Shown here: one piece after another, positions 3,282 to 57,656 of the stretch
Position numbering within the stretch: position 1 is the stretch's first letter
Layout of the letters: each line of letters begins with the position of its first letter
Sequence record: PZ445440.1
Origin: a phage
Length of the DNA: 64,000 nucleotides
Strand: one strand, 5' to 3'
Notes under the pieces: model-generated
Seen by the model: only the letters and a program-made list of their open reading frames with translations
Database searches by the model: none
Told to the model about the DNA's origin: nothing
Program-made: the position numbers and the translations under genes

Positions 3282-3839
3282 TTAAAGATGAAGATACCAC
3301 CCGTTGTAGTTGCTCTTGCGGACGATTTTCTTTAGGTCTTCATGGTCTCCCACGAACTTTATAGAATAAGAGAAGACGTCAGGTGAGGTTTCTTTGACAT
3401 CTAATATAATAATGCAATCTGCGACTCGATGATTCAAGAAGGGCCCTATATTGATTCCATTACCACCTGGGTAATCACCACTGTATCCTGTGGTAACCGA
3501 AATCCATTTAGAATCTATCTGGTGCGTCTTGACTTCTACACGAATTCCACAATACTTGGGATGGGCTAACACGTCCCATGCATACGTGTACGGGTCTTCT
3601 ACATCTTCAATACCTTTATTAACATATCCGTCTAGCCAATTTGCTACTACATACTCTGCAAAGACCGCAACCTTACAACGTCGAACAACGCCTTCTTTTA
3701 TTTGTCCTGGATCTTGTTTCAACGAGTACCGAGCAGTATCAGCGATCTTAACCTTCATTTCGCTAGTCAAAAACTCATTCGACAGGATAAATGTCGGAAG
3801 ACTCTTCAGCCTCAACAACCCCAAGTTCGTCTTTACCAT
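3282..3839 (-). CDS. denB: putative endonuclease IV (DenB-like) by position and size; start placed at internal Met with GAGG SD
   Basis: 185 aa from MVKTNLG..., same length as T4 DenB as I recall; immediately downstream of rIIB as in T4; sequence identity not verified. Confidence 0.45.
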   Translation of the reverse strand: MVKTNLGLLRLKSLPTFILSNEFLTSEMKVKIADTARYSLKQDPGQIKEGVVRRCKVAVFAEYVVANWLDGYVNKGIEDVEDPYTYAWDVLAHPKYCGIRVEVKTHQIDSKWISVTTGYSGDYPGGNGINIGPFLNHRVADCIIILDVKETSPDVFSYSIKFVGDHEDLKKIVRKSNYNGWYLHL

Positions 3840-10594: not shown

Positions 10595-11018
10595 ATTTAA
10601 ATTTAATTTTCTGAAGTGCATCAATTGCAGCCAAACGCCCTTGTTCACTTTTAACTGTAATGACCACATCGCCTGATACGATCACCGAACCATCAACAAA
10701 TTCTATAGAGCCTTTTTTGAAATCGACAGCTGTATCTGGTTCCGGAACTTCTTCAAAGAATTTAAATTCTGCACCATAAAGCAGAATATCACCTTGCATA
10801 CTATGAATAGTTCGGCCATAATCGCCTACGGCTTCTACAGCAATAACCGAAACACCGTAGCCAATCATCTCTTCCACAATAAAATCTTTGGACAATAAAG
10901 TAGTATGCAGATTAGTATTAAGACGTTTACCAGTCGTATTAAGAATTCTCAAGAAATTATCTTCCTGTCCTTTGATAATACGATATTTCTTACCAACTTC
11001 AAAACCTTTAAAAGCCAT
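10593..11018 (-). CDS. hypothetical protein, possibly GoF-like by size and position (141 aa)
   Basis: 141-aa ORF upstream of gene 39; T4 goF occupies the equivalent position; identity not verified. Confidence 0.4.
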   Translation of the reverse strand: MAFKGFEVGKKYRIIKGQEDNFLRILNTTGKRLNTNLHTTLLSKDFIVEEMIGYGVSVIAVEAVGDYGRTIHSMQGDILLYGAEFKFFEEVPEPDTAVDFKKGSIEFVDGSVIVSGDVVITVKSEQGRLAAIDALQKIKFK

Positions 11019-11020
11019 AA

Positions 11021-11200
11021 TTAACCCTTCTTAAGTAAATCGTAAAAACCACCGTTCACATGTTTAGGAGCAGAAACCCGACGAGTAGACATACGATGAC
11101 ATTCAGGGCAAACATCGTTTTCTCGTTCAGAAATTCTTTTAATTTTTTCATATTCATGACCACAATCTTCAGATTGGCATTTATAGTCGTATAACGGCAT
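11021..11200 (-). CDS. small zinc-ribbon protein (59 aa, CxxC...CxxC)
   Basis: Hand translation MPLYDYKCQSEDCGHEYEKIKRISEREDDVCPECHRMSTRRVSAPKHVNGGFYDLLKKG; fits exactly between flanking ORFs. Confidence 0.6.
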   Translation of the reverse strand: MPLYDYKCQSEDCGHEYEKIKRISERENDVCPECHRMSTRRVSAPKHVNGGFYDLLKKG

Positions 11201-11202
11201 TA

Positions 11203-11631
11203 TTATTCCTTAAAATGTGCTTTCAACATTTGATACAAAGACCATGCCTGGTCATTATTTTTGATAGTAATCGTCATCACAGGAAATTCAGACAATTCAT
11301 CAAGTTCACCAGAATCTTGCTCTTCGGACGCTTGATATGGATTTCCAACTTCGTCAAAGAACTCTGCTTCATTCGTGGAGAGCCAGATAAAGTTTTCATC
11401 AAGGATATCACCGCCTGCTGCATATCCAACCATGCCAGTAGATGTCACAATTTTAGTAGGACGACCAAGATGGTCAACATCTAATACTTTAAATGGTTCC
11501 ATGCCAAGACGTCGTGCATAAATCCCATTATCAGTGTGGTCTTTAATAAACTCTTCTTGGGCACGTTTATCTTTAAATTGGTACCATGAGTTAACGCGGA
11601 ATTTATTAGCCATTAGTAAGTTTCCTTCCAA
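11203..11631 (-). CDS. hypothetical protein (142 aa)
   Basis: ORF in gene array. Confidence 0.6.
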
Positions 11632-11885
11632 TAAGTTGTACCATTTTCAGTGATTTCACGGAAGATACCATAGATAGGCATTTCATCACCGAGTTTTTCG
11701 TAAACGTAAACCACTTCAGTGTAGCATAAAAATTCGGTCCAGTTTTTCTGTACAACAACTAAATCAGGATTAAACAGAACATCTTCAAACTCGTCGATGT
11801 TTGAATCAGTAGTTACATTTTTAATGATTTGACGTTTCATAATATTCTCCTCTTGTTTTGATAGGTCTATAGTATCATAGACCAT
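11613..11885 (-). CDS. hypothetical protein (90 aa)
   Basis: ORF in gene array. Confidence 0.55.
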
Positions 11886-11897
11886 AGTTGTTGTACA

Positions 11898-12422
11898 TCA
11901 TTTTAGCAAAATAAAATCAACTTGTTCTGCCAATGAACGTCTAAACATTAATTGACAACTTCCGAGGATGAAATCAGGTGCTTCATAGACGGCGATGTAG
12001 TATCCTTTAGCTTTCAAGAGTTCAACATCCACCTGGTCATCAAACCATGCATAAACCGCGTCAACACTTTCAAATCCAAAATAGAACCCTTGAGCCCAAT
12101 CTTCACTCAATTCAAATGTGTGCTCAATTCTATAGTATCTTAAGATATTTTGTTCAAGGAGTTTGTCTTCATTTACTGTAGGACGATTAGGGACATTATA
12201 GTTGTCACCGTGATGGTAGAAGTTACCTGAGAGTATTCCATGCTTATCAAGGAACTCCCATGTTTCTTCAGAGTTGTCGGTGCCTGACCAACCGTATGGC
12301 GAACGAGGTTCTTTATTCCAAGAGGTTTCCCAAATTCTGACGGCTTTACCGTCTTCAATAGCAATTCCTGGTAATGATTCACGTTGAGTACAAAAACTAC
12401 GTTCTACGCGGTAAACTAACAT
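11898..12422 (-). CDS. hypothetical protein (174 aa)
   Basis: ATG with GAGGAG SD and upstream promoter. Confidence 0.65.
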   Translation of the reverse strand: MLVYRVERSFCTQRESLPGIAIEDGKAVRIWETSWNKEPRSPYGWSGTDNSEETWEFLDKHGILSGNFYHHGDNYNVPNRPTVNEDKLLEQNILRYYRIEHTFELSEDWAQGFYFGFESVDAVYAWFDDQVDVELLKAKGYYIAVYEAPDFILGSCQLMFRRSLAEQVDFILLK

Positions 12423-12448
12423 ATTATTCTCCTCTGGTTGATATGGTT

Positions 12449-12477
12449 ATAATATCAAAACCAGAGGAGAAGTAAAC
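12449..12477 (-). promoter_or_regulatory. T4-type early promoter; -10 inside inverted repeat CCTCTGGTT/AACCAGAGG
   Basis: Minus GTTTAC (12477-12472), 17-bp spacer, TATTAT (12454-12449). Confidence 0.5.
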
Positions 12478-12481
12478 AACT

Positions 12482-12901
12482 TTATGCGAAAGCAGCTGGG
12501 CTATATTTTTTAATTTGGAATTCAGGAACTACCATGAACTGTCCAGCGAAAACGATGTTATAAAGCTTAACACCATCTTCTACCCAACGGTCGCTAATAA
12601 ATCCGGCGATTTGCTTAGTTTTCCATGGTGTTCCATCAGTTGCCGCAGCAATAGTGAATTCATGGTCTTTTTCAACAGAAACTGATCTGCATAGTCCCCA
12701 TTTGAACGCTTTTTCTTCTGGTTCAATGAATTGGCTTGAGACGTAGCCAATATTACCATTAGCATCACGAACTTTAACTTGGTTACGACCAAAAACCGGA
12801 TCACTCACAGAAAGAACTTCAACCAACTTCCCGGCAACTTTAGAGCGAGAAGCAACAGATACATATACGTAATCACCTGTAGAGAGATTTACAATATTCA
12901 T
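12482..12901 (-). CDS. member A of tandem paralog family (139 aa), function unknown
   Basis: Shares N-terminal SxASRSKxAGKLVEV and C-terminal GFISDRWVEDGxKLYNIVFxGxFxVV motifs with the next two genes; TTG start with AAGGA SD. Confidence 0.7.
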   Translation of the reverse strand: MNIVNLSTGDYVYVSVASRSKVAGKLVEVLSVSDPVFGRNQVKVRDANGNIGYVSSQFIEPEEKAFKWGLCRSVSVEKDHEFTIAAATDGTPWKTKQIAGFISDRWVEDGVKLYNIVFAGQFMVVPEFQIKKYSPAAFA

Positions 12902-12910
12902 AATAATTCC

Positions 12911-13375
12911 TTAAGCTTTACGAGGAGACACATAGCGAGTGATTTCAGATTCTTTAACAACTCGGAAGTCACCTAAGAATACGATATTGTATAACTTTTC
13001 ACCATCTTCAACCCATTGGTCACTAATGAAGCCACACATAGTATCAGTTTTGCTTGGATAACCGTATTCATCGATGAAGTCAAATTCTTTATCAGTCTGG
13101 AATTCAACACCTTTACACAAGGCCCATTTGAACTGTGTAGTAGGCTCAACGATATCGCTTGAAGCAAAGTGGGCACTTACACGAGTTTCCAAGAATTTAG
13201 GACTTACATAGGCGAACTGAGTTTCAGTTTTTCCAGAACTAGGAATGATTCGAACTTTAACTTCTTTAATATGGCCCATGCCATTAGTACGAAGTCCTAC
13301 TACTTCAACCAGCTTTCCTGCAGCTTTAGAACGAGACGCTGTCGATACACGTTTAATTTCACCAATATTAATCAT
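12911..13375 (-). CDS. member B of tandem paralog family (154 aa from internal ATG)
   Basis: Motif CGFISDQWVEDGEKLYNIVFLGDFRVV; track ORF N-terminus overlaps the upstream promoter so start moved to MINIGEIK. Confidence 0.65.
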   Translation of the reverse strand: MINIGEIKRVSTASRSKAAGKLVEVVGLRTNGMGHIKEVKVRIIPSSGKTETQFAYVSPKFLETRVSAHFASSDIVEPTTQFKWALCKGVEFQTDKEFDFIDEYGYPSKTDTMCGFISDQWVEDGEKLYNIVFLGDFRVVKESEITRYVSPRKA

Positions 13376-13405
13376 ATTTTTTCTCTCTTTGTTTAAGTTG
13401 AATTC

Positions 13406-13436
13406 ATTATACTCCATCCATCCTTGGATGTAAAAC
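13406..13436 (-). promoter_or_regulatory. early promoter, member of the conserved 29-bp module family (variant -35)
   Basis: Plus ttatactccatccatccttggatgtaaaac; near-identical to modules at 13963, 55771 and 56792. Confidence 0.45.
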
Positions 13437-13437
13437 A

Positions 13438-13932
13438 TTAATTAAGAATATTAACTACTGCACTACGTGGAACAACACTAAAATCACCTGCATGAACAAC
13501 GTTCAGAAGTTCAACACCGTCTTCAATCCACTGGTCAGTTACCCAGCCACTTACCGGTCCAGCGAACGGACGTCGAATTGAAACAGCTTTACACAACAAA
13601 TCAGTAGGCTCAATAGGCTTAATCAGAGTACCGTACATACAAGCGATATCCATATCAATACAGATGTCTTTAACGGGTTCTACTTCTTCAATCAACAGTT
13701 CAAAGTCGGTGTTTGGAAGGGCGGTAGTAGAAATTGTACCGTATGAATTTTTAATTTCTAAGAATAACCAAGGGCCTTCAGCTTGTTTGATAAAGTTAAC
13801 AATAGTGAAACTATTACCTTGAGTGGCACCTAAAATTTCGCAAAACTTTTCATAAGCTCGCACTGAAGCGCCGTACCAGTTGATTTGTTTTTCGTCTTTC
13901 AGGATGTAAGTAGCCGTAGTATTGATATTCAT
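13438..13932 (-). CDS. member C of tandem paralog family (164 aa from internal ATG)
   Basis: C-terminal GWVTDQWIEDGVELLNVVHAGDFSVV shares the family motif; track ORF start (TTG) lies inside the promoter -10. Confidence 0.65.
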   Translation of the reverse strand: MNINTTATYILKDEKQINWYGASVRAYEKFCEILGATQGNSFTIVNFIKQAEGPWLFLEIKNSYGTISTTALPNTDFELLIEEVEPVKDICIDMDIACMYGTLIKPIEPTDLLCKAVSIRRPFAGPVSGWVTDQWIEDGVELLNVVHAGDFSVVPRSAVVNILN

Positions 13933-13962
13933 AATGTTTTCCCGTTTGGTTAAGATAGAAAG

Positions 13963-13992
13963 ATTATACTCCAACCATCCTTGGTTGTAAAC
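13963..13992 (-). promoter_or_regulatory. early promoter, conserved 29-bp module (GTTTAC-AACCAAGGATGGTTGGAG-TATAAT)
   Basis: Plus ttatactccaaccatccttggttgtaaac; identical module upstream of three other genes. Confidence 0.55.
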
Positions 13993-13997
13993 TGGTT

Positions 13998-14675
13998 TTA
14001 TCGCTGTTTTACACTTAACGGGTCAGGATTCTCAGGGACATCTTCAAGGCCAAGCGCATAACGCTGAGCATATTTTAACATCAAAATATCTTTAGCACAA
14101 TCATGAATACTATCATGGGCAACGAATCCTTTTAGCGTACCCATCGGTAATGGACACATACTTAATCCTCGTGTCAACGAGTAAGCTTCGATTGCCGTAC
14201 GAATATCACGTTGAGCCCAGAATTTAACAGGTTCTAATTTATCGGTATCAATATCTGGTTCAAGAACACCTTCATCACGATAGAGGTCACGAATCAAATC
14301 GACTAAGATCGGGAAGTCAAAGCTCATACCACGGCACCACATCTGTGATTTCCATTGGTCAACTTTATTAGCTCGACAATAATCTAAAAAGATTTTAATG
14401 CCTTCAAGCGTAGTGACATCATCTTCAGACGGAGCCAGGTTTTTACGTGCTTCTGCTGATTGTTCTTTCCACCATTTCATAGTGGATTTAGCGAAAACTC
14501 GCTTCCCTTTCTGAGAAGCTAGATTAAATTTAATTCGCTTACCTCGTTGAACAAGTTCTTCAAATGATTCAACAACTTCAGGGTCGGAATTATATGCAAT
14601 AACCGCAAGGTCAATAACAGCCGCTTTTGATGTATTGCCGAATGTTTCAAAATCTATAATAACATCAGTGCTCAT
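13998..14675 (-). CDS. dexA: exonuclease A (DexA)
   Basis: 225 aa (T4 DexA 227 aa as I recall); DEDD-like N-terminal DFETFG; immediately downstream of dda as in T4. Confidence 0.75.
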   Translation of the reverse strand: MSTDVIIDFETFGNTSKAAVIDLAVIAYNSDPEVVESFEELVQRGKRIKFNLASQKGKRVFAKSTMKWWKEQSAEARKNLAPSEDDVTTLEGIKIFLDYCRANKVDQWKSQMWCRGMSFDFPILVDLIRDLYRDEGVLEPDIDTDKLEPVKFWAQRDIRTAIEAYSLTRGLSMCPLPMGTLKGFVAHDSIHDCAKDILMLKYAQRYALGLEDVPENPDPLSVKQR

Positions 14676-14684
14676 AATTTTCTC

Positions 14685-15998
14685 TCAAATAAAATGGACG
14701 TCAAAACGACCACGAGTTGTGCCGACATACAATAACTGTTTAGCTAATTCTGAATCGGCATAATGGATACACGGCGTATAAACAAAGGCCGTGTCAACAG
14801 ACATACCCTGGGCCTTATGGAAGGTTGATACAGGTAGTGCCTTCACCTTAGTGAACATACGTTTAGCATCCCAGAATTCGCTCCATGGGGCTTTACCACC
14901 TTTATTCCAAAATTTGTATGTTTCTGCGGTCTTAGCCAAAAACAAATTGAATTTATAAAGCTCTTCTTCAGAAGAAATAACCTTTATATCTTCGCGGATG
15001 TATTCTTCATCATCCCCATATGTTTCTACTGTAAGATTCCAGTATCGTATCATATATTCGCCTGAAACACCACGTGCTTTAACGAATGTAGACGTTTCTA
15101 CAGCATCTCGAATACGAACGAATTGCCCGTTATTGAAAAGCATTTCAGTCATATTTTTGCCATCTAGCTTGTACGTCTTAGTAAACGGCTCTTGTAGAAC
15201 AATGACTTCGTCTTTAATAAATGGTTTTTCTGTTTCAAGAAGTTTTCGGCGAATAATTGAATTTAACTTGTCCACCGACTTATTTGTGAATGCCATCATT
15301 CGATTTTCGAAAAGGTCTTCAGGAGTTTTAACGACGTTAAAATAGTTCATCATATACGATTTAAGGTCTGTATACCCATGAACACCGTGTCCATCAACTA
15401 CTTTATCGTAAATCCATTTGCCATTACGAATATCAGTCGCAACATCAATAATTGGTGCATTGCTACGTTTAACTTCTGTAAGGTTGCATTGCACGAAGTC
15501 TTTGTGAGTGAAGAAAGGACTTAGATATGCAGTTGATTCGCCTGGGTCTACCGGTCGAATCTGGCATCGGTCACCAATTCCAATTACTGTGCACCATTTA
15601 GGGATACTAGCTAACATTATTTTAAACAGAGAACGGTCGCACATTGATGCTTCATCAAATAACAGTACACGACACAAGGCTAAGTCGGGAACCTTTTTCT
15701 GTTCAAACAATACGTTTTCTTCGTATGTAGTTGGGTTGATTTTAAGAATGCTATGAATAGTCGATGCTTCTTGACCTGCAAGTTTGCTTAGAACCTTTTT
15801 AGCTGCATGTGTAGGGGCTGCTAAAATAATACCTGATTCTCCAGAAGAAATAAGGGCTTCAACGATGAATCTAGTAAGGGTTGTTTTACCTGTACCAGCA
15901 GGCCCATTAATAGTTACGTGATGTTTCTTTTCTTTAATAGCGTTCATAACAACATTGAAGGCGTTTTTCTGGCCGTCAGTCAAATCATCAAATGTCAT
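14685..15998 (-). CDS. dda: Dda SF1B DNA helicase
   Basis: 437 aa; MTFDDLTDGQKNAFNVVMNAIKEKKHHVTINGPAGTGKTT nearly identical to T4 Dda N-terminus from memory. Confidence 0.95.
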   Translation of the reverse strand: MTFDDLTDGQKNAFNVVMNAIKEKKHHVTINGPAGTGKTTLTRFIVEALISSGESGIILAAPTHAAKKVLSKLAGQEASTIHSILKINPTTYEENVLFEQKKVPDLALCRVLLFDEASMCDRSLFKIMLASIPKWCTVIGIGDRCQIRPVDPGESTAYLSPFFTHKDFVQCNLTEVKRSNAPIIDVATDIRNGKWIYDKVVDGHGVHGYTDLKSYMMNYFNVVKTPEDLFENRMMAFTNKSVDKLNSIIRRKLLETEKPFIKDEVIVLQEPFTKTYKLDGKNMTEMLFNNGQFVRIRDAVETSTFVKARGVSGEYMIRYWNLTVETYGDDEEYIREDIKVISSEEELYKFNLFLAKTAETYKFWNKGGKAPWSEFWDAKRMFTKVKALPVSTFHKAQGMSVDTAFVYTPCIHYADSELAKQLLYVGTTRGRFDVHFI

Positions 15999-16306
15999 CG
16001 TAAAGTCCCTGCAATTGGAATACTAACAATACGGCCTGTGTCCAGGATTCGTTGATACAATCTTTGCGTCTCCGCATCTAGTTTAATGTGTTTCATTTCA
16101 AGCTTATTAAACCAGAACTTACGCGGAGTTTCGACCATTCTTAGAACTCCCATTTTTAAATCTGTTTTATACTGTGTTTTCAAAGTATCGAAAACTTTAT
16201 CTGCAATATCCTTTCTAAAAAATACTGCAGGACGATGCTCATCAAGTGGAACCGGGACAGTAAATCCTTCCATATCTCGATAAACTATTGCATATACATA
16301 AACCAT
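15995..16306 (-). CDS. dda.1: Dda.1-like hypothetical protein (103 aa)
   Basis: 4-nt overlap with dda start; synteny. Confidence 0.6.
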   Translation of the reverse strand: MVYVYAIVYRDMEGFTVPVPLDEHRPAVFFRKDIADKVFDTLKTQYKTDLKMGVLRMVETPRKFWFNKLEMKHIKLDAETQRLYQRILDTGRIVSIPIAGTLR

Positions 16307-54487: not shown

Positions 54488-54792
54488 TATAATGTTCTCT
54501 CAAATTTGTGGAAGCATTTACGGCATTTCAATTTCAAGTTATCAGTGGTCCAGTTAACCAGTTGGACTTGGATAGTTCCACATTCCGGACATGGATGTTT
54601 TGCTGCCGATTTGGCAGCATTTTCACGTCGTTCAACCATTTTCATGATTTCGTTCCATGCCGGAGGAACGAACTCTTCTTCACTATGAATTTTATCTCGT
54701 TGAACAAATTCAATCTTTGAACTATCGTCAATAAACTTAACCAAGCGGTGATTAGTGTTCATATCAATATCTTCTAAAAGACGTAGTTTCAT
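54487..54792 (-). CDS. zinc-ribbon protein (101 aa)
   Basis: CPECG...CRKC motif pair. Confidence 0.55.
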   Translation of the reverse strand: MKLRLLEDIDMNTNHRLVKFIDDSSKIEFVQRDKIHSEEEFVPPAWNEIMKMVERRENAAKSAAKHPCPECGTIQVQLVNWTTDNLKLKCRKCFHKFERTL

Positions 54793-55742
54793 TATAACAC
54801 CTCAATGGCATTTCGTAAACCATCCGCTTTAGCATTCAGAGCTTTTAACGATTTAGTTTGTTCTGCAATCTGGGCTTCGACTTCTTTCAGACGAGATTTG
54901 AGATATTCGCGTTCTTCTCTTAAGTTATCAACTTTTTCTGCTTTAGGCTCTTTAATAGACTTAGGTTTATATGTATTAGGGTTCTTCAACTTAATTTGAA
55001 TGCGAGAACTGAATAACATCGAACCGTTATCTTCGGTTTCACTGTGCATTTCTACCACATCCATGATTCTTAACATCATGCGAAGTTTATAAGACAGCGA
55101 ACGAACGGTTTTATTGTGCTTCTTAATTTCTTCAGCTTTCATGGTGCCGAGATTACGTGAGTAGTAATAAGGAACCTGGATATCAATTGATAATGATGCG
55201 TTACCATTACCAGTTGGTTTGAATACTGCAGTAACCCAATCTTTAACATGAACTTTATTTGTACGATCATCGCCGCCTGTGAATAATTTACAAGAATGTT
55301 TAAAAAGCATATTCACTTGGTTATTGAATTCACAAGCAAATTTATCAGCAAATTTAGTTTCAGGAATGGTAGTTAACCATTCAGCCAAATGAGTCTTTTT
55401 AACATCATTAACAATAGTGAATTCAACCAAATCGGTTTTAGTTGTCACAGATTTAATAAAGCTCGGCTTCATAAAGTTTTTAATGTTATCGCGAGCTACA
55501 GTAGAAGATAATAAACGAGAACGTTTGAACCATTGAAGCAACGTCCCTAACGAATGAGAATACGCATTTTGAGTATCTTTACAGATATGATTTTCTTGGC
55601 CTATGTATGTACCAAAATCGCGAAGAATACCACTTACTACATCTCGGTGTGGAACATCAAATCCTAGTGCACCAGAAGCACGTTGGGCATGAACGTTAGC
55701 GATAAGACCTGCAAAGTATTCAATGTAATGTGAACGTGTCAT
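54792..55742 (-). CDS. hypothetical protein with C-terminal coiled coil (316 aa)
   Basis: ATG with GAGG SD; heptad-like C-terminus EEREYLKSRLKEVEAQIAEQTKSLKALNAKADGLRNAIEVL. Confidence 0.65.
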   Translation of the reverse strand: MTRSHYIEYFAGLIANVHAQRASGALGFDVPHRDVVSGILRDFGTYIGQENHICKDTQNAYSHSLGTLLQWFKRSRLLSSTVARDNIKNFMKPSFIKSVTTKTDLVEFTIVNDVKKTHLAEWLTTIPETKFADKFACEFNNQVNMLFKHSCKLFTGGDDRTNKVHVKDWVTAVFKPTGNGNASLSIDIQVPYYYSRNLGTMKAEEIKKHNKTVRSLSYKLRMMLRIMDVVEMHSETEDNGSMLFSSRIQIKLKNPNTYKPKSIKEPKAEKVDNLREEREYLKSRLKEVEAQIAEQTKSLKALNAKADGLRNAIEVL

Positions 55743-55770: not shown

Positions 55771-55800
55771 ATTATACTCCAACCATCCTTGGTTGTAAAC
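55771..55800 (-). promoter_or_regulatory. early promoter, conserved 29-bp module
   Basis: Plus ttatactccaaccatccttggttgtaaac (minus GTTTAC-N18-TATAAT). Confidence 0.55.
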
Positions 55801-55804
55801 TATT

Positions 55805-56764
55805 TTATGATTTTAATGCATTCATTGCGTTAAAAAGTTTAGAATACTGCAACTGGAGATTCGTTACAACACTTTGAGCATCACGAAGCTTAGCTTGTGC
55901 TTTGTCAAGTTCAACAGACAGTTGGTCTACAGTAGCCTTGATTTGGTTGTAATGATAATCTTCGGCTGGAAGAAGGTCATTAGAAACATTTAGTTTTACT
56001 GCAGACAGTTTGCACACATTTGGTAAACCTTTAAACATTGATTTACCTGAAGTAGAATAAGCACTTAGGACTTCAGCCTGTTCAATTGGGGTCCCAGTAA
56101 GCGATGCTTCGAACGTTGCATTTTCCTTTTTAAGATTTTGATAGTATTCAGAGTCTTTGTGCCACCATGGCGCAGGAACCTTTTTACCAATAGATACACG
56201 AGCCTGGATAGCGATATGGCCCTTATTCTTGATAGGGTCGATAATATTAAGCTCACGAGAATAAATTGCTTTAATCTCATGGATATTATCGCCTAACACT
56301 TCTAGCGCTTGGTGGAATACACGAGCAACGTTATCATTCTTAGGTTTATACGTAAGAGTGAACTCGTTCTCACTGATAACCATGATTTCTAACTTATCGT
56401 AAGTGTACTTAAGATGCTTCATGTTAACCGCTTGAGGACGAATACGAGAAGCAATGGCCATCAGATTGTTAAGGTTATTCCGGAACTGCTTAGCGAAATA
56501 TTGTCCTTCACCACCAATACAAAAATTACGAAGTTTCTGTTTGGCTAATAAACGGCTGAACTCACCATTTTTAATGAACTCTTTAACGGGTGTGTTAGTA
56601 ACGCATTCAAATTGAGTAAACTTACGAGAATTAATCCCATAATACGAACAGATTTCCTCAATCTCTTCAGGAGTCTTTACAGGCATACGGATAGGATTAG
56701 GTCCTGGAGTATATGCGTTCGAGGTAAATTCTTTGATAAGTTCTTTACGTGTAATAAAAGCCAT
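55805..56764 (-). CDS. hypothetical protein with C-terminal coiled coil (319 aa)
   Basis: ATG with GAGGAA SD; own promoter module. Confidence 0.65.
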   Translation of the reverse strand: MAFITRKELIKEFTSNAYTPGPNPIRMPVKTPEEIEEICSYYGINSRKFTQFECVTNTPVKEFIKNGEFSRLLAKQKLRNFCIGGEGQYFAKQFRNNLNNLMAIASRIRPQAVNMKHLKYTYDKLEIMVISENEFTLTYKPKNDNVARVFHQALEVLGDNIHEIKAIYSRELNIIDPIKNKGHIAIQARVSIGKKVPAPWWHKDSEYYQNLKKENATFEASLTGTPIEQAEVLSAYSTSGKSMFKGLPNVCKLSAVKLNVSNDLLPAEDYHYNQIKATVDQLSVELDKAQAKLRDAQSVVTNLQLQYSKLFNAMNALKS

Positions 56765-56791
56765 TTTATATTCCTCATGTTGAAAAATTTA

Positions 56792-56820
56792 TTATACTCC
56801 AACCATCCTTGGTTGTACAT
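56792..56820 (-). promoter_or_regulatory. early promoter, conserved 29-bp module (variant -35)
   Basis: Plus ttatactccaaccatccttggttgtacat. Confidence 0.5.
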
Positions 56821-57656
56821 CATTCCTTAAGAAGTTTTACTACCTGAATAAGATTAGCTCGTTCTGTTTTATTTTTACCGTTTAAGCCTGCTAATCGTGA
56901 GATTTCATCGTCAGTCTGTTGAATAGTTACATTAAGTTCGTTAATCAAAGCTTCAAAGTATTTGATTTGCTCAGCATGTTTTGATTCAAATTTCTGAACC
57001 GGAATAACGTCTTGGTTTAGTTCATCAATAAGGTCTTTAAGAGCATCTTCTTGGTTGATATCATATTCAACTTCTTTTATTTCTTCAACGAGCTCGTCTT
57101 TATATCTAACGTCTTTTAGTCCTGGTGCTGGTCCTGAAATCTCTTCTTTAAGAGTACAAACATATCCAATACGGTATCCAATGCCGGCTCGCTTGATATC
57201 AACTTCGTCGATAAATCCACAATGTTTAAGCCCGGAGCCGATTAGGTCAAAATATCCTTGACGTCGTCCTTCAAACGTTACATGAACTACTAAGACAGTT
57301 TTACCTGCAACCTTTTGAAGCTCACATTTATAAAAGTCAGTTGAACCTGAATAACGTGGATGAGTTTTAAAGTTCATCTGACGATCTAGGCCCATTTGTA
57401 AACGCGCTGTTACGGCCAGAAAACGTGTTTGGTTCTCGTTAAGATGAGCAACAATCCATTTCAAAGGCATTTTACATTGGTCACGACAGAACAAATCAAC
57501 ATATCCAAGATTACGAAGGATATTGTTAGAGTTAATCATCGACAGAACGTTAAGTTTATTCAGCGCGCTGAAGATTCCATCAGCCATTGATTTTCCGTAA
57601 CCTTTACACGCTTTAATAAGTGCTCGCGGCAGATTAGTATAGATTTCAGACGGCAT
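56820..57656 (-). CDS. hypothetical protein with C-terminal coiled coil (278 aa)
   Basis: ORF in array. Confidence 0.6.
   Translation of the reverse strand: MPSEIYTNLPRALIKACKGYGKSMADGIFSALNKLNVLSMINSNNILRNLGYVDLFCRDQCKMPLKWIVAHLNENQTRFLAVTARLQMGLDRQMNFKTHPRYSGSTDFYKCELQKVAGKTVLVVHVTFEGRRQGYFDLIGSGLKHCGFIDEVDIKRAGIGYRIGYVCTLKEEISGPAPGLKDVRYKDELVEEIKEVEYDINQEDALKDLIDELNQDVIPVQKFESKHAEQIKYFEALINELNVTIQQTDDEISRLAGLNGKNKTERANLIQVVKLLKE

Follow-up and report, generated by a model that had tools for sequence, protein, structure and literature searches.

Three adjacent genes at positions 12482-13932 of a 64,000-nucleotide stretch of phage DNA (sequence record PZ445440.1; the whole stretch is referred to as the window) very probably form the MotB-family cassette of phage Bas46, acting through a DNA-coating protein and a C-terminal module common to all three products. 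The genes, designated g1, g2 and g3, are true tandem paralogues. Bases 11000-16000 of the window were 100% identical to MZ501056 (Escherichia phage ChristianSchoenbein, Bas46; Mosigvirus, Straboviridae). A first-pass annotation of the window had described three neighbouring genes of 139, about 154 and about 164 amino acids with a common C-terminal motif, and these open reading frames (ORFs) were confirmed on the minus strand. The observation was correct; the object, treated there as an unnamed family, is a known family (Pfam PF17613, PHROG 1671 and 2333) in a known arrangement. Published work already covers the family, the C-terminal domain that its members share and the presence of several copies in Mosigvirus. 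The annotation had also proposed a role in host takeover or anti-defence. The host-takeover part was broadly right, as the T4 MotB prototype is a studied early host-takeover protein (PMC6070864, PMC7827196), whereas the literature found contained no link to anti-defence. The genes and their C-terminal motifs are located as follows.

13438-13932, minus strand: g3 (bas46_0112), ORF of 164 amino acids
12911-13375, minus strand: g2 (within bas46_0111), ORF of 154 amino acids
12482-12901, minus strand: g1 (bas46_0110), ORF of 139 amino acids
13471-13548, minus strand: C-terminal motif of g3, GWVTDQWIEDGVELLNVVHAGDFSVV, residues 129-154, strands 2-4 of the C-terminal barrel
12956-13033, minus strand: C-terminal motif of g2, GFISDQWVEDGEKLYNIVFLGDFRVV, residues 115-140
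12527-12604, minus strand: C-terminal motif of g1, GFISDRWVEDGVKLYNIVFAGQFMVV, residues 100-125

BLASTP comparison of g1 with g2 gave an E-value of 6e-32 (43% identity over 148 amino acids). The comparisons g1-g3 and g2-g3 gave 5e-11 and 2e-10, and both alignments were limited to the C-terminal 36-57 residues. The similarity was significant in all three pairs, and a low-complexity artefact was excluded. All three products scored above the curated gathering score of 25 bits for Pfam PF17613 "motB", with 75.6 bits for g1 (E-value 5.3e-21), 139.4 bits for g2 (1.2e-40, residues 1-149) and 35.8 bits for g3, where the match was confined to the C-terminal domain (residues 85-159). Matches to phrog_1671 were found for g2 (1.5e-65) and g1 (6.6e-51), and g3 matched phrog_2333 over its full length (8.8e-83, residues 1-164). 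The pattern D-x-W-x-E-x-G-x-x-L-x-N-x-V was observed in the C-terminal barrel of all three proteins, and an alignment of 23 C-terminal domains from differing architectures contained ten invariant columns. The longer motif of the first-pass annotation, beginning with GF[IV][ST]D, was likewise present in all three, but g3 reads GWVTD at this point and fits it inexactly. The N-terminal motif noticed in two of the genes was found in g1 (SVASRSKVAGKLVEV) and g2 (STASRSKAAGKLVEV). The corresponding KOW-like signature, SRSKxAG+hVEV, is absent from g3, whose N-terminal domain is of another type. An internal duplication relating the N- and C-terminal domains of MotB was considered and rejected (hhalign probability 1%).

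The product of g2 was 49% identical to T4 MotB over 155 amino acids (E-value 3e-45) and is assigned as its orthologue. It shares with T4 MotB a plan in which a KOW-like N-terminal domain (SRSKAAGKLVEV) is joined through a variable linker to the C-terminal barrel, and g2 likewise lies in the dexA-cef neighbourhood with an early promoter upstream. Net charges in g2 are +7 for the N-terminal domain, which is basic, and -4 for the C-terminal domain, and the linker between them is disordered. The AlphaFold2 (AF2) model of g2 had a mean predicted local distance difference test score (pLDDT) of 80.6, with values below 50 for linker residues 66-79 and of 80-93 for the blocks of the C-terminal domain. 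Strands were predicted in the N-terminal domain at residues 7-10, 22-30, 36-43 and 53-57. The deposited coding sequence (CDS) bas46_0111 starts g2 further upstream, at ATG 13438 (12911-13438, minus strand; 175 amino acids), and its first 21 codons are a translation of the early promoter (…FYIQGWMEYN…). Residue 2 of T4 MotB aligns with residue 1 of the 154-amino-acid form, and MotB of RB69 has 151 amino acids. The start at 13375 is preferred because homology with the T4 and RB69 MotB proteins begins there and the extra codons are promoter sequence. The 154-amino-acid start given by the first-pass annotation is therefore better than the GenBank call, which is over-extended.

The product of g1 was 37% identical to T4 MotB, and g1 is best described as a second, diverged and shorter copy of MotB (MotB'). 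The KOW-like N-terminal domain and the C-terminal barrel were kept, while the linker is almost gone and the positive charge of the N-terminal domain has been lost. The net charge of this domain is 0, in contrast to +2 to +8 in the MotB orthologues, so that g1 differs from T4 MotB in both linker and N-terminal charge. T4 has a single motB, whereas Bas46 has two in tandem. Other phages have conserved orthologues of the 139-amino-acid g1. A promoter belonging to g1 itself was not found; the gene begins 9 nt past the stop codon of g2, and its Shine-Dalgarno sequence, AAGGA, overlaps that stop codon. Because of this overlap and the missing promoter, g1 is likely to be co-transcribed and translationally coupled with g2.

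The product of g3 was 38% identical to T4 MotB.1 over 134 amino acids, covering all of the T4 protein, and g3 is assigned as an intact, full-length MotB.1 orthologue. It consists of an LSm-like N-terminal domain, a linker with the motif DMDIACMYGTLIKP and a MotB-type C-terminal barrel. An LSm-like fold was assigned to the N-terminal domain of MotB.1 by Kim et al. 2025, and the label is taken from there. The AF2 model of g3 had a mean pLDDT of 78.3, with 84-91 for the blocks of the C-terminal domain. Strands were predicted at residues 8-11, 42-49, 55-61, 67-73 and 80-83 of the N-terminal domain, together with two helices, and at residues 116-119, 127-137, 140-147, 150-155 and 159-163 of the C-terminal domain. 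The linker motif (13621-13662, minus strand; residues 91-104) lies in a low-confidence linker region. Its consensus is D-[MFI]-D-[IV]-[AV]-x-x-Y-x-x-x-[IVL]-x-P, and in relatives it was found either between two domains or at the N-terminus. This insert, which is missing from the T4-type MotB.1 of 143 amino acids, could be a docking peptide.

Whereas g3 is intact at 164 amino acids, the T4 reference MotB.1 has 119 and ends inside its WIEDG motif. When the T4 locus (2200-2400) was compared with window positions 13438-13560, one extra G was found in motB.1 of NC_000866 (TGGATTG-G-AAGATGG). The record reads TGGATTGGAAGATGG, as against TGGATTGAAGATGG in T4T, T4 'wild' and the Bas46 window. In the next frame the remainder of this domain, EDGVELLNVVHAGEYSVVPRSAVVAILN, can still be read intact. 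The repaired protein of 143 amino acids was found on 256 contigs and the 119-amino-acid form on 2. In RB69 (NC_004928, locus 3370-3560), single extra T's (CCGTTTCGC and GACGGTTGTTG) relative to the window sequence split motB.1 into an ORF of 132 amino acids and the 29-amino-acid 'Category 3 peptide' (RB69p012) of Patterson-West et al. 2021; motB.1 of Bas46 is a single ORF. The 29-amino-acid peptide is the C-terminal remnant of motB.1. The frameshift is unmentioned in both MotB.1 papers (Patterson-West et al. 2021; Kim et al. 2025). The motB.1 constructs of Kim et al. 2025 were specified by NC_000866.4 coordinates, the genes were synthesised commercially, and MotB.1 was reported as a monomer of 13.8 kDa. 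Because these coordinates were cited and 13.8 kDa fits 119 amino acids, the product corresponds to the 119-amino-acid form, and the 2025 functional work used a truncated MotB.1.

The shared C-terminal domain was studied in the AF2 models of g2 and g3, which were built on 22-sequence alignments and were confident outside the linkers. The same five-stranded C-terminal domain was predicted in both proteins by AF2, with strands assigned by DSSP. The conserved motif covers strand 2 (…GFISDQWVE), a DG turn, strand 3 (KLYNIVF), an xG turn and strand 4 (DFRVV). Strands 3 and 4 are joined by a mere two-residue turn, and strand 4 is followed by a three-residue helix and then strand 5. In these models the WVEDG stretch does not stand alone but makes up strands 2-4 of a predicted SH3/Tudor-like barrel of about 55-75 residues. 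In SH3-like small barrels a 3-10 turn leads into the last strand, and strands 3 and 4 follow each other without a helix, unlike in the OB fold. The SH3-like assignment is preferred because of the strand order and because the models show both of these features. The Trp of the strand-2 pattern D-x-W-x-E is invariant and should lie on one face together with the flanking acidic residues. The resemblance to Tudor, chromo, KOW and SH3-like barrels (e.g. the 53BP1 tandem Tudor and the NusG/Spt5 KOW) is one of fold and not of family membership, and sequence identity to the small-barrel structural neighbours was 6-20%. The structure searches used whole-protein predicted models, and we infer that the small-barrel matches belong to the C-terminal domain. 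A profile of 23 C-terminal domains gave no significant match in the PDB (best E-value 0.72). HHpred had placed the C-terminal domain of MotB in the cold-shock DNA-binding-like OB fold (SCOPe b.40.4.5; PMC7827196). This assignment, which would call for a five-stranded barrel with a helix linking strands 3 and 4 and for structural neighbours such as eIF5A or Csp, was not reproduced, as the predicted models have no such helix.

The distribution of the family was examined with the g2 C-terminal domain in a tblastn search, which gave matches at 1494 places in 772 phage records. Among the rows listed, Mosigvirus and RB3-type phages usually had three places and T4-type phages two. The copy number, one of the points proposed for checking, varied from 1 to 3 among phages. 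RB69 has motB.1, motB, a 139-amino-acid MotB-like gene and motB.2, in the same order as Bas46. RB3 (Tequatrovirus) has motB.1, motB and a 139-amino-acid MotB-like gene, T4 has motB.1 and motB, and in the distant Klebsiella phage F48 the dexA-cef slot contains just one family member. When 1.84 billion cluster representatives were searched exhaustively with a profile, only 34 clusters matched. Twenty-four of these had E-values of about 1e-10 or better, and those inspected were of the KOW plus C-terminal domain type or the MotB.1 type. The most divergent members inspected all had a KOW-type N-terminal domain joined to the shared C-terminal domain, an architecture labelled here as the presumably ancestral one. 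Structural matches in BFVD at E < 1e-3 were, where named, T4-like phage proteins. A wider family beyond the T4-like phages was considered and set aside; the few long multi-stretch matches at E-values of about 1e-5 look like repeat noise.

C-terminal domains 74-88% identical to that of g3 were found on at least four N-terminal architectures (LSm-like, 180-amino-acid, 250-amino-acid and KOW types), and the domain has been shuffled between N-terminal heads. The ratio of nonsynonymous to synonymous substitution rates (dN/dS), determined against moskry and RB69, was 0.00-0.15 for all three genes. These values indicate purifying selection, and because of them g1, g2 and g3 were judged to be functional. 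The description of the genes as diversified paralogues did not hold in this respect, close relatives being under purifying and not diversifying selection.

The proposed mechanism draws on what is known of T4 MotB. T4 MotB, an abundant protein, was shown by Patterson-West et al. 2018 to be made early and to be toxic in E. coli (PMC6070864). It binds unmodified as well as glucosyl-hydroxymethyl-C DNA with no sequence preference, co-purifies with H-NS and StpA, and doubled the burst size (PMC6070864). In a later study, Patterson-West et al. 2021, the H-NS footprint was altered by MotB and part of the H-NS regulon was de-repressed (PMC7827196). The same study described a conserved C-terminal domain common to MotB and MotB.1 with several alternative N-terminal domains, and listed two motB, one motB.1 and one 29-amino-acid peptide for RB69 (PMC7827196). 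Net charges were calculated for the domains of the three types of family member, with the following result.

MotB orthologues (18 sequences): N-terminal +2 to +8, linker mostly acidic, C-terminal -5 to +2
g1-type (4 sequences): N-terminal -3 to 0, linker about 0, C-terminal 0 to +3
MotB.1-type (22 sequences): N-terminal -7 to +2 (21 of 22 at or below 0), C-terminal -5 to -1

The g3 protein itself had a net charge of -6 N-terminally and of -3 in its C-terminal domain. By orthology with T4 MotB, g2 would coat the host DNA soon after infection with no sequence preference. It would change the placement of H-NS and StpA on the DNA, so that silenced genes are de-repressed and the burst size is modestly increased. 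DNA binding would be located in the KOW-like N-terminal domain, which is favoured because it is basic while the C-terminal domain is neutral to acidic. The shared neutral-to-acidic barrel may be a common interaction or assembly module for different N-terminal heads, acting either by associating with like or unlike copies or by docking to a single common partner. Because the N-terminal domain of g1 is uncharged and g3 is acidic overall, these two proteins would be modulators or adaptors and not DNA coaters.

A more specific version of this proposal was also formulated, but it is put forward only tentatively, with the odds leaning against it. The WVEDG barrel could be a Tudor/SH3-like targeting or co-assembly module, and not a DNA-binding element, that brings MotB, MotB', MotB.1 and the relatives of 180-250 amino acids to one partner or into a mixed assembly on the host nucleoid. 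If this is true, the tandem set would be a modular toolkit built around one docking domain, and the negative results published for T4 MotB.1 would have to be repeated, since the protein used lacked most of this domain. For work on T4 early proteins, the points of use are the SH3/Tudor-like placement of the shared domain, the charge hints as to which domain binds DNA and that g1-type and MotB.1-type proteins are more than simple DNA coaters, and the truncations in the motB.1 records of T4 and RB69.

Several points weigh against the proposed roles of the cassette. Some Tudor/PWWP/SH3-like barrels bind DNA, and the C-terminal domain of T4 MotB is slightly positive (+2). The functional assays in the family come from T4 proteins, and the 2021 paper left DNA binding by the C-terminal domain open (PMC7827196). 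The published dimer data are only on the truncated T4 MotB.1 (Kim et al. 2025).

An unlikely alternative, though the best of those considered, is that all three products are non-specific DNA-binding nucleoid proteins in which an OB, cold-shock-like C-terminal domain binds DNA, the paralogues being redundant or dosage copies. This explanation would fit the published OB-fold assignment, and the C-terminal domain is the sole part common to all members of a family that was named after a DNA binder. However, the net charge of the domain is only -5 to +3, the MotB.1-type proteins, including g3, are almost all acidic throughout, and the predicted models lack the helix between strands 3 and 4. Redundancy is also at odds with N-terminal domains and linkers that differ strongly among copies which are each under purifying selection.

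It is still more doubtful that the cassette is an anti-defence set, in which each paralogue neutralises another component of host immunity on a common C-terminal scaffold. The genes do lie in an early, dispensable region, their number varies from 1 to 3 among phages, and the C-terminal domain is fused to several differing N-terminal domains. Moreover, when T4 MotB relieves xenogeneic silencing by H-NS, this can be regarded as counter-defence in a broad sense. The literature found nevertheless ties no family member to any defence system, the dN/dS values give no sign of an arms race among close relatives, and T4 motB and motB.1 mutants had a mild phenotype or none on laboratory strains. A chance or compositional similarity of unrelated small ORFs can practically be dismissed, given E-values of 6e-32 to 2e-10, Pfam scores over the curated cut-off, the invariant columns of the C-terminal alignment and the common five-strand domain of g2 and g3.

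The cassette occupies the early-region slot between dexA and cef, where family members also lie in T4, RB69, RB3 and Klebsiella phage F48. All genes in the 11000-16000 stretch are on the minus strand, and the neighbours of g1-g3 in transcription order are given below.

14685-15998, minus strand: dda, first in transcription order
13998-14675, minus strand: dexA, after dda and before g3
11898-12422, minus strand: MotB.2-like gene, 174 amino acids, followed by cef and then goF

The gene order dexA-motB.1-motB-motB'-motB.2-cef was observed in both Bas46 and RB69, and the RB69 motB region (RB69p009-p013) belongs to the same genus. The T4 order is dexA-motB.2-motB.1-motB-cef, and in RB3 too motB.2 directly follows dexA. 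The 174-amino-acid gene was ruled out as a fourth paralogue, as it had no PF17613 match and only an E-value of 0.36 against g3. It is a MotB.2 homologue, 34% identical to T4 MotB.2.

The early-region setting of the first-pass annotation was supported, since g3 and g2 lie behind predicted consensus T4-type early promoters. In both copies of the 29-bp module TTTACAnCCAAGGATGGnTGGAGTATAAT, 11 of the 12 positions of the sigma-70 hexamers matched, and the spacer was 17 nt long.

13963-13991, minus strand: early promoter before g3, -35 GTTTACA, 17-nt spacer, -10 TATAAT, consensus match
13406-13434, minus strand: early promoter before g2, directly after the g3 stop codon and inside the 175-amino-acid GenBank CDS

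A -35 element of the form GTTTAC/TTTTAC is typical of T4 early promoters. The claim that two of the genes have the same 29-bp module was correct for g3 and g2, but these are not the pair with the common N-terminal motif, and the module is not specific to the paralogues. Four copies were found in the window, the other two at 55771-55799 and 56791-56819 (both minus strand), one of them identical and the other differing at one position. These two precede tandem ORFs unrelated to the paralogues, of 316 amino acids (54792-55742, phrog_1435) and 319 amino acids (55805-56764, phrog_2351). The C-terminal ends of both ORFs looked coiled-coil-like by eye, and a third similar ORF lies at 56820-57656. With two of four copies before unrelated ORFs, the module was ruled out as a mark of the paralogues, and it is predicted to be a recurring T4-type early promoter of Bas46.

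A strong hairpin was found downstream of g1, at 12427-12471 (minus strand; 12+6 bp, -23.9 kcal/mol, z -5.7). The Shine-Dalgarno sequence belonging to the MotB.2-like gene, GAGGAG, forms its 3' arm, and the -10 hexamer of a weak promoter-like site at 12449-12476 (TTTACT-16-TATTAT) lies in its loop. In a design known from some other T4 genes, read-through RNA from g2 and g1 would hide the ribosome site of the MotB.2-like gene, and RNA initiated within the hairpin would leave that site exposed.

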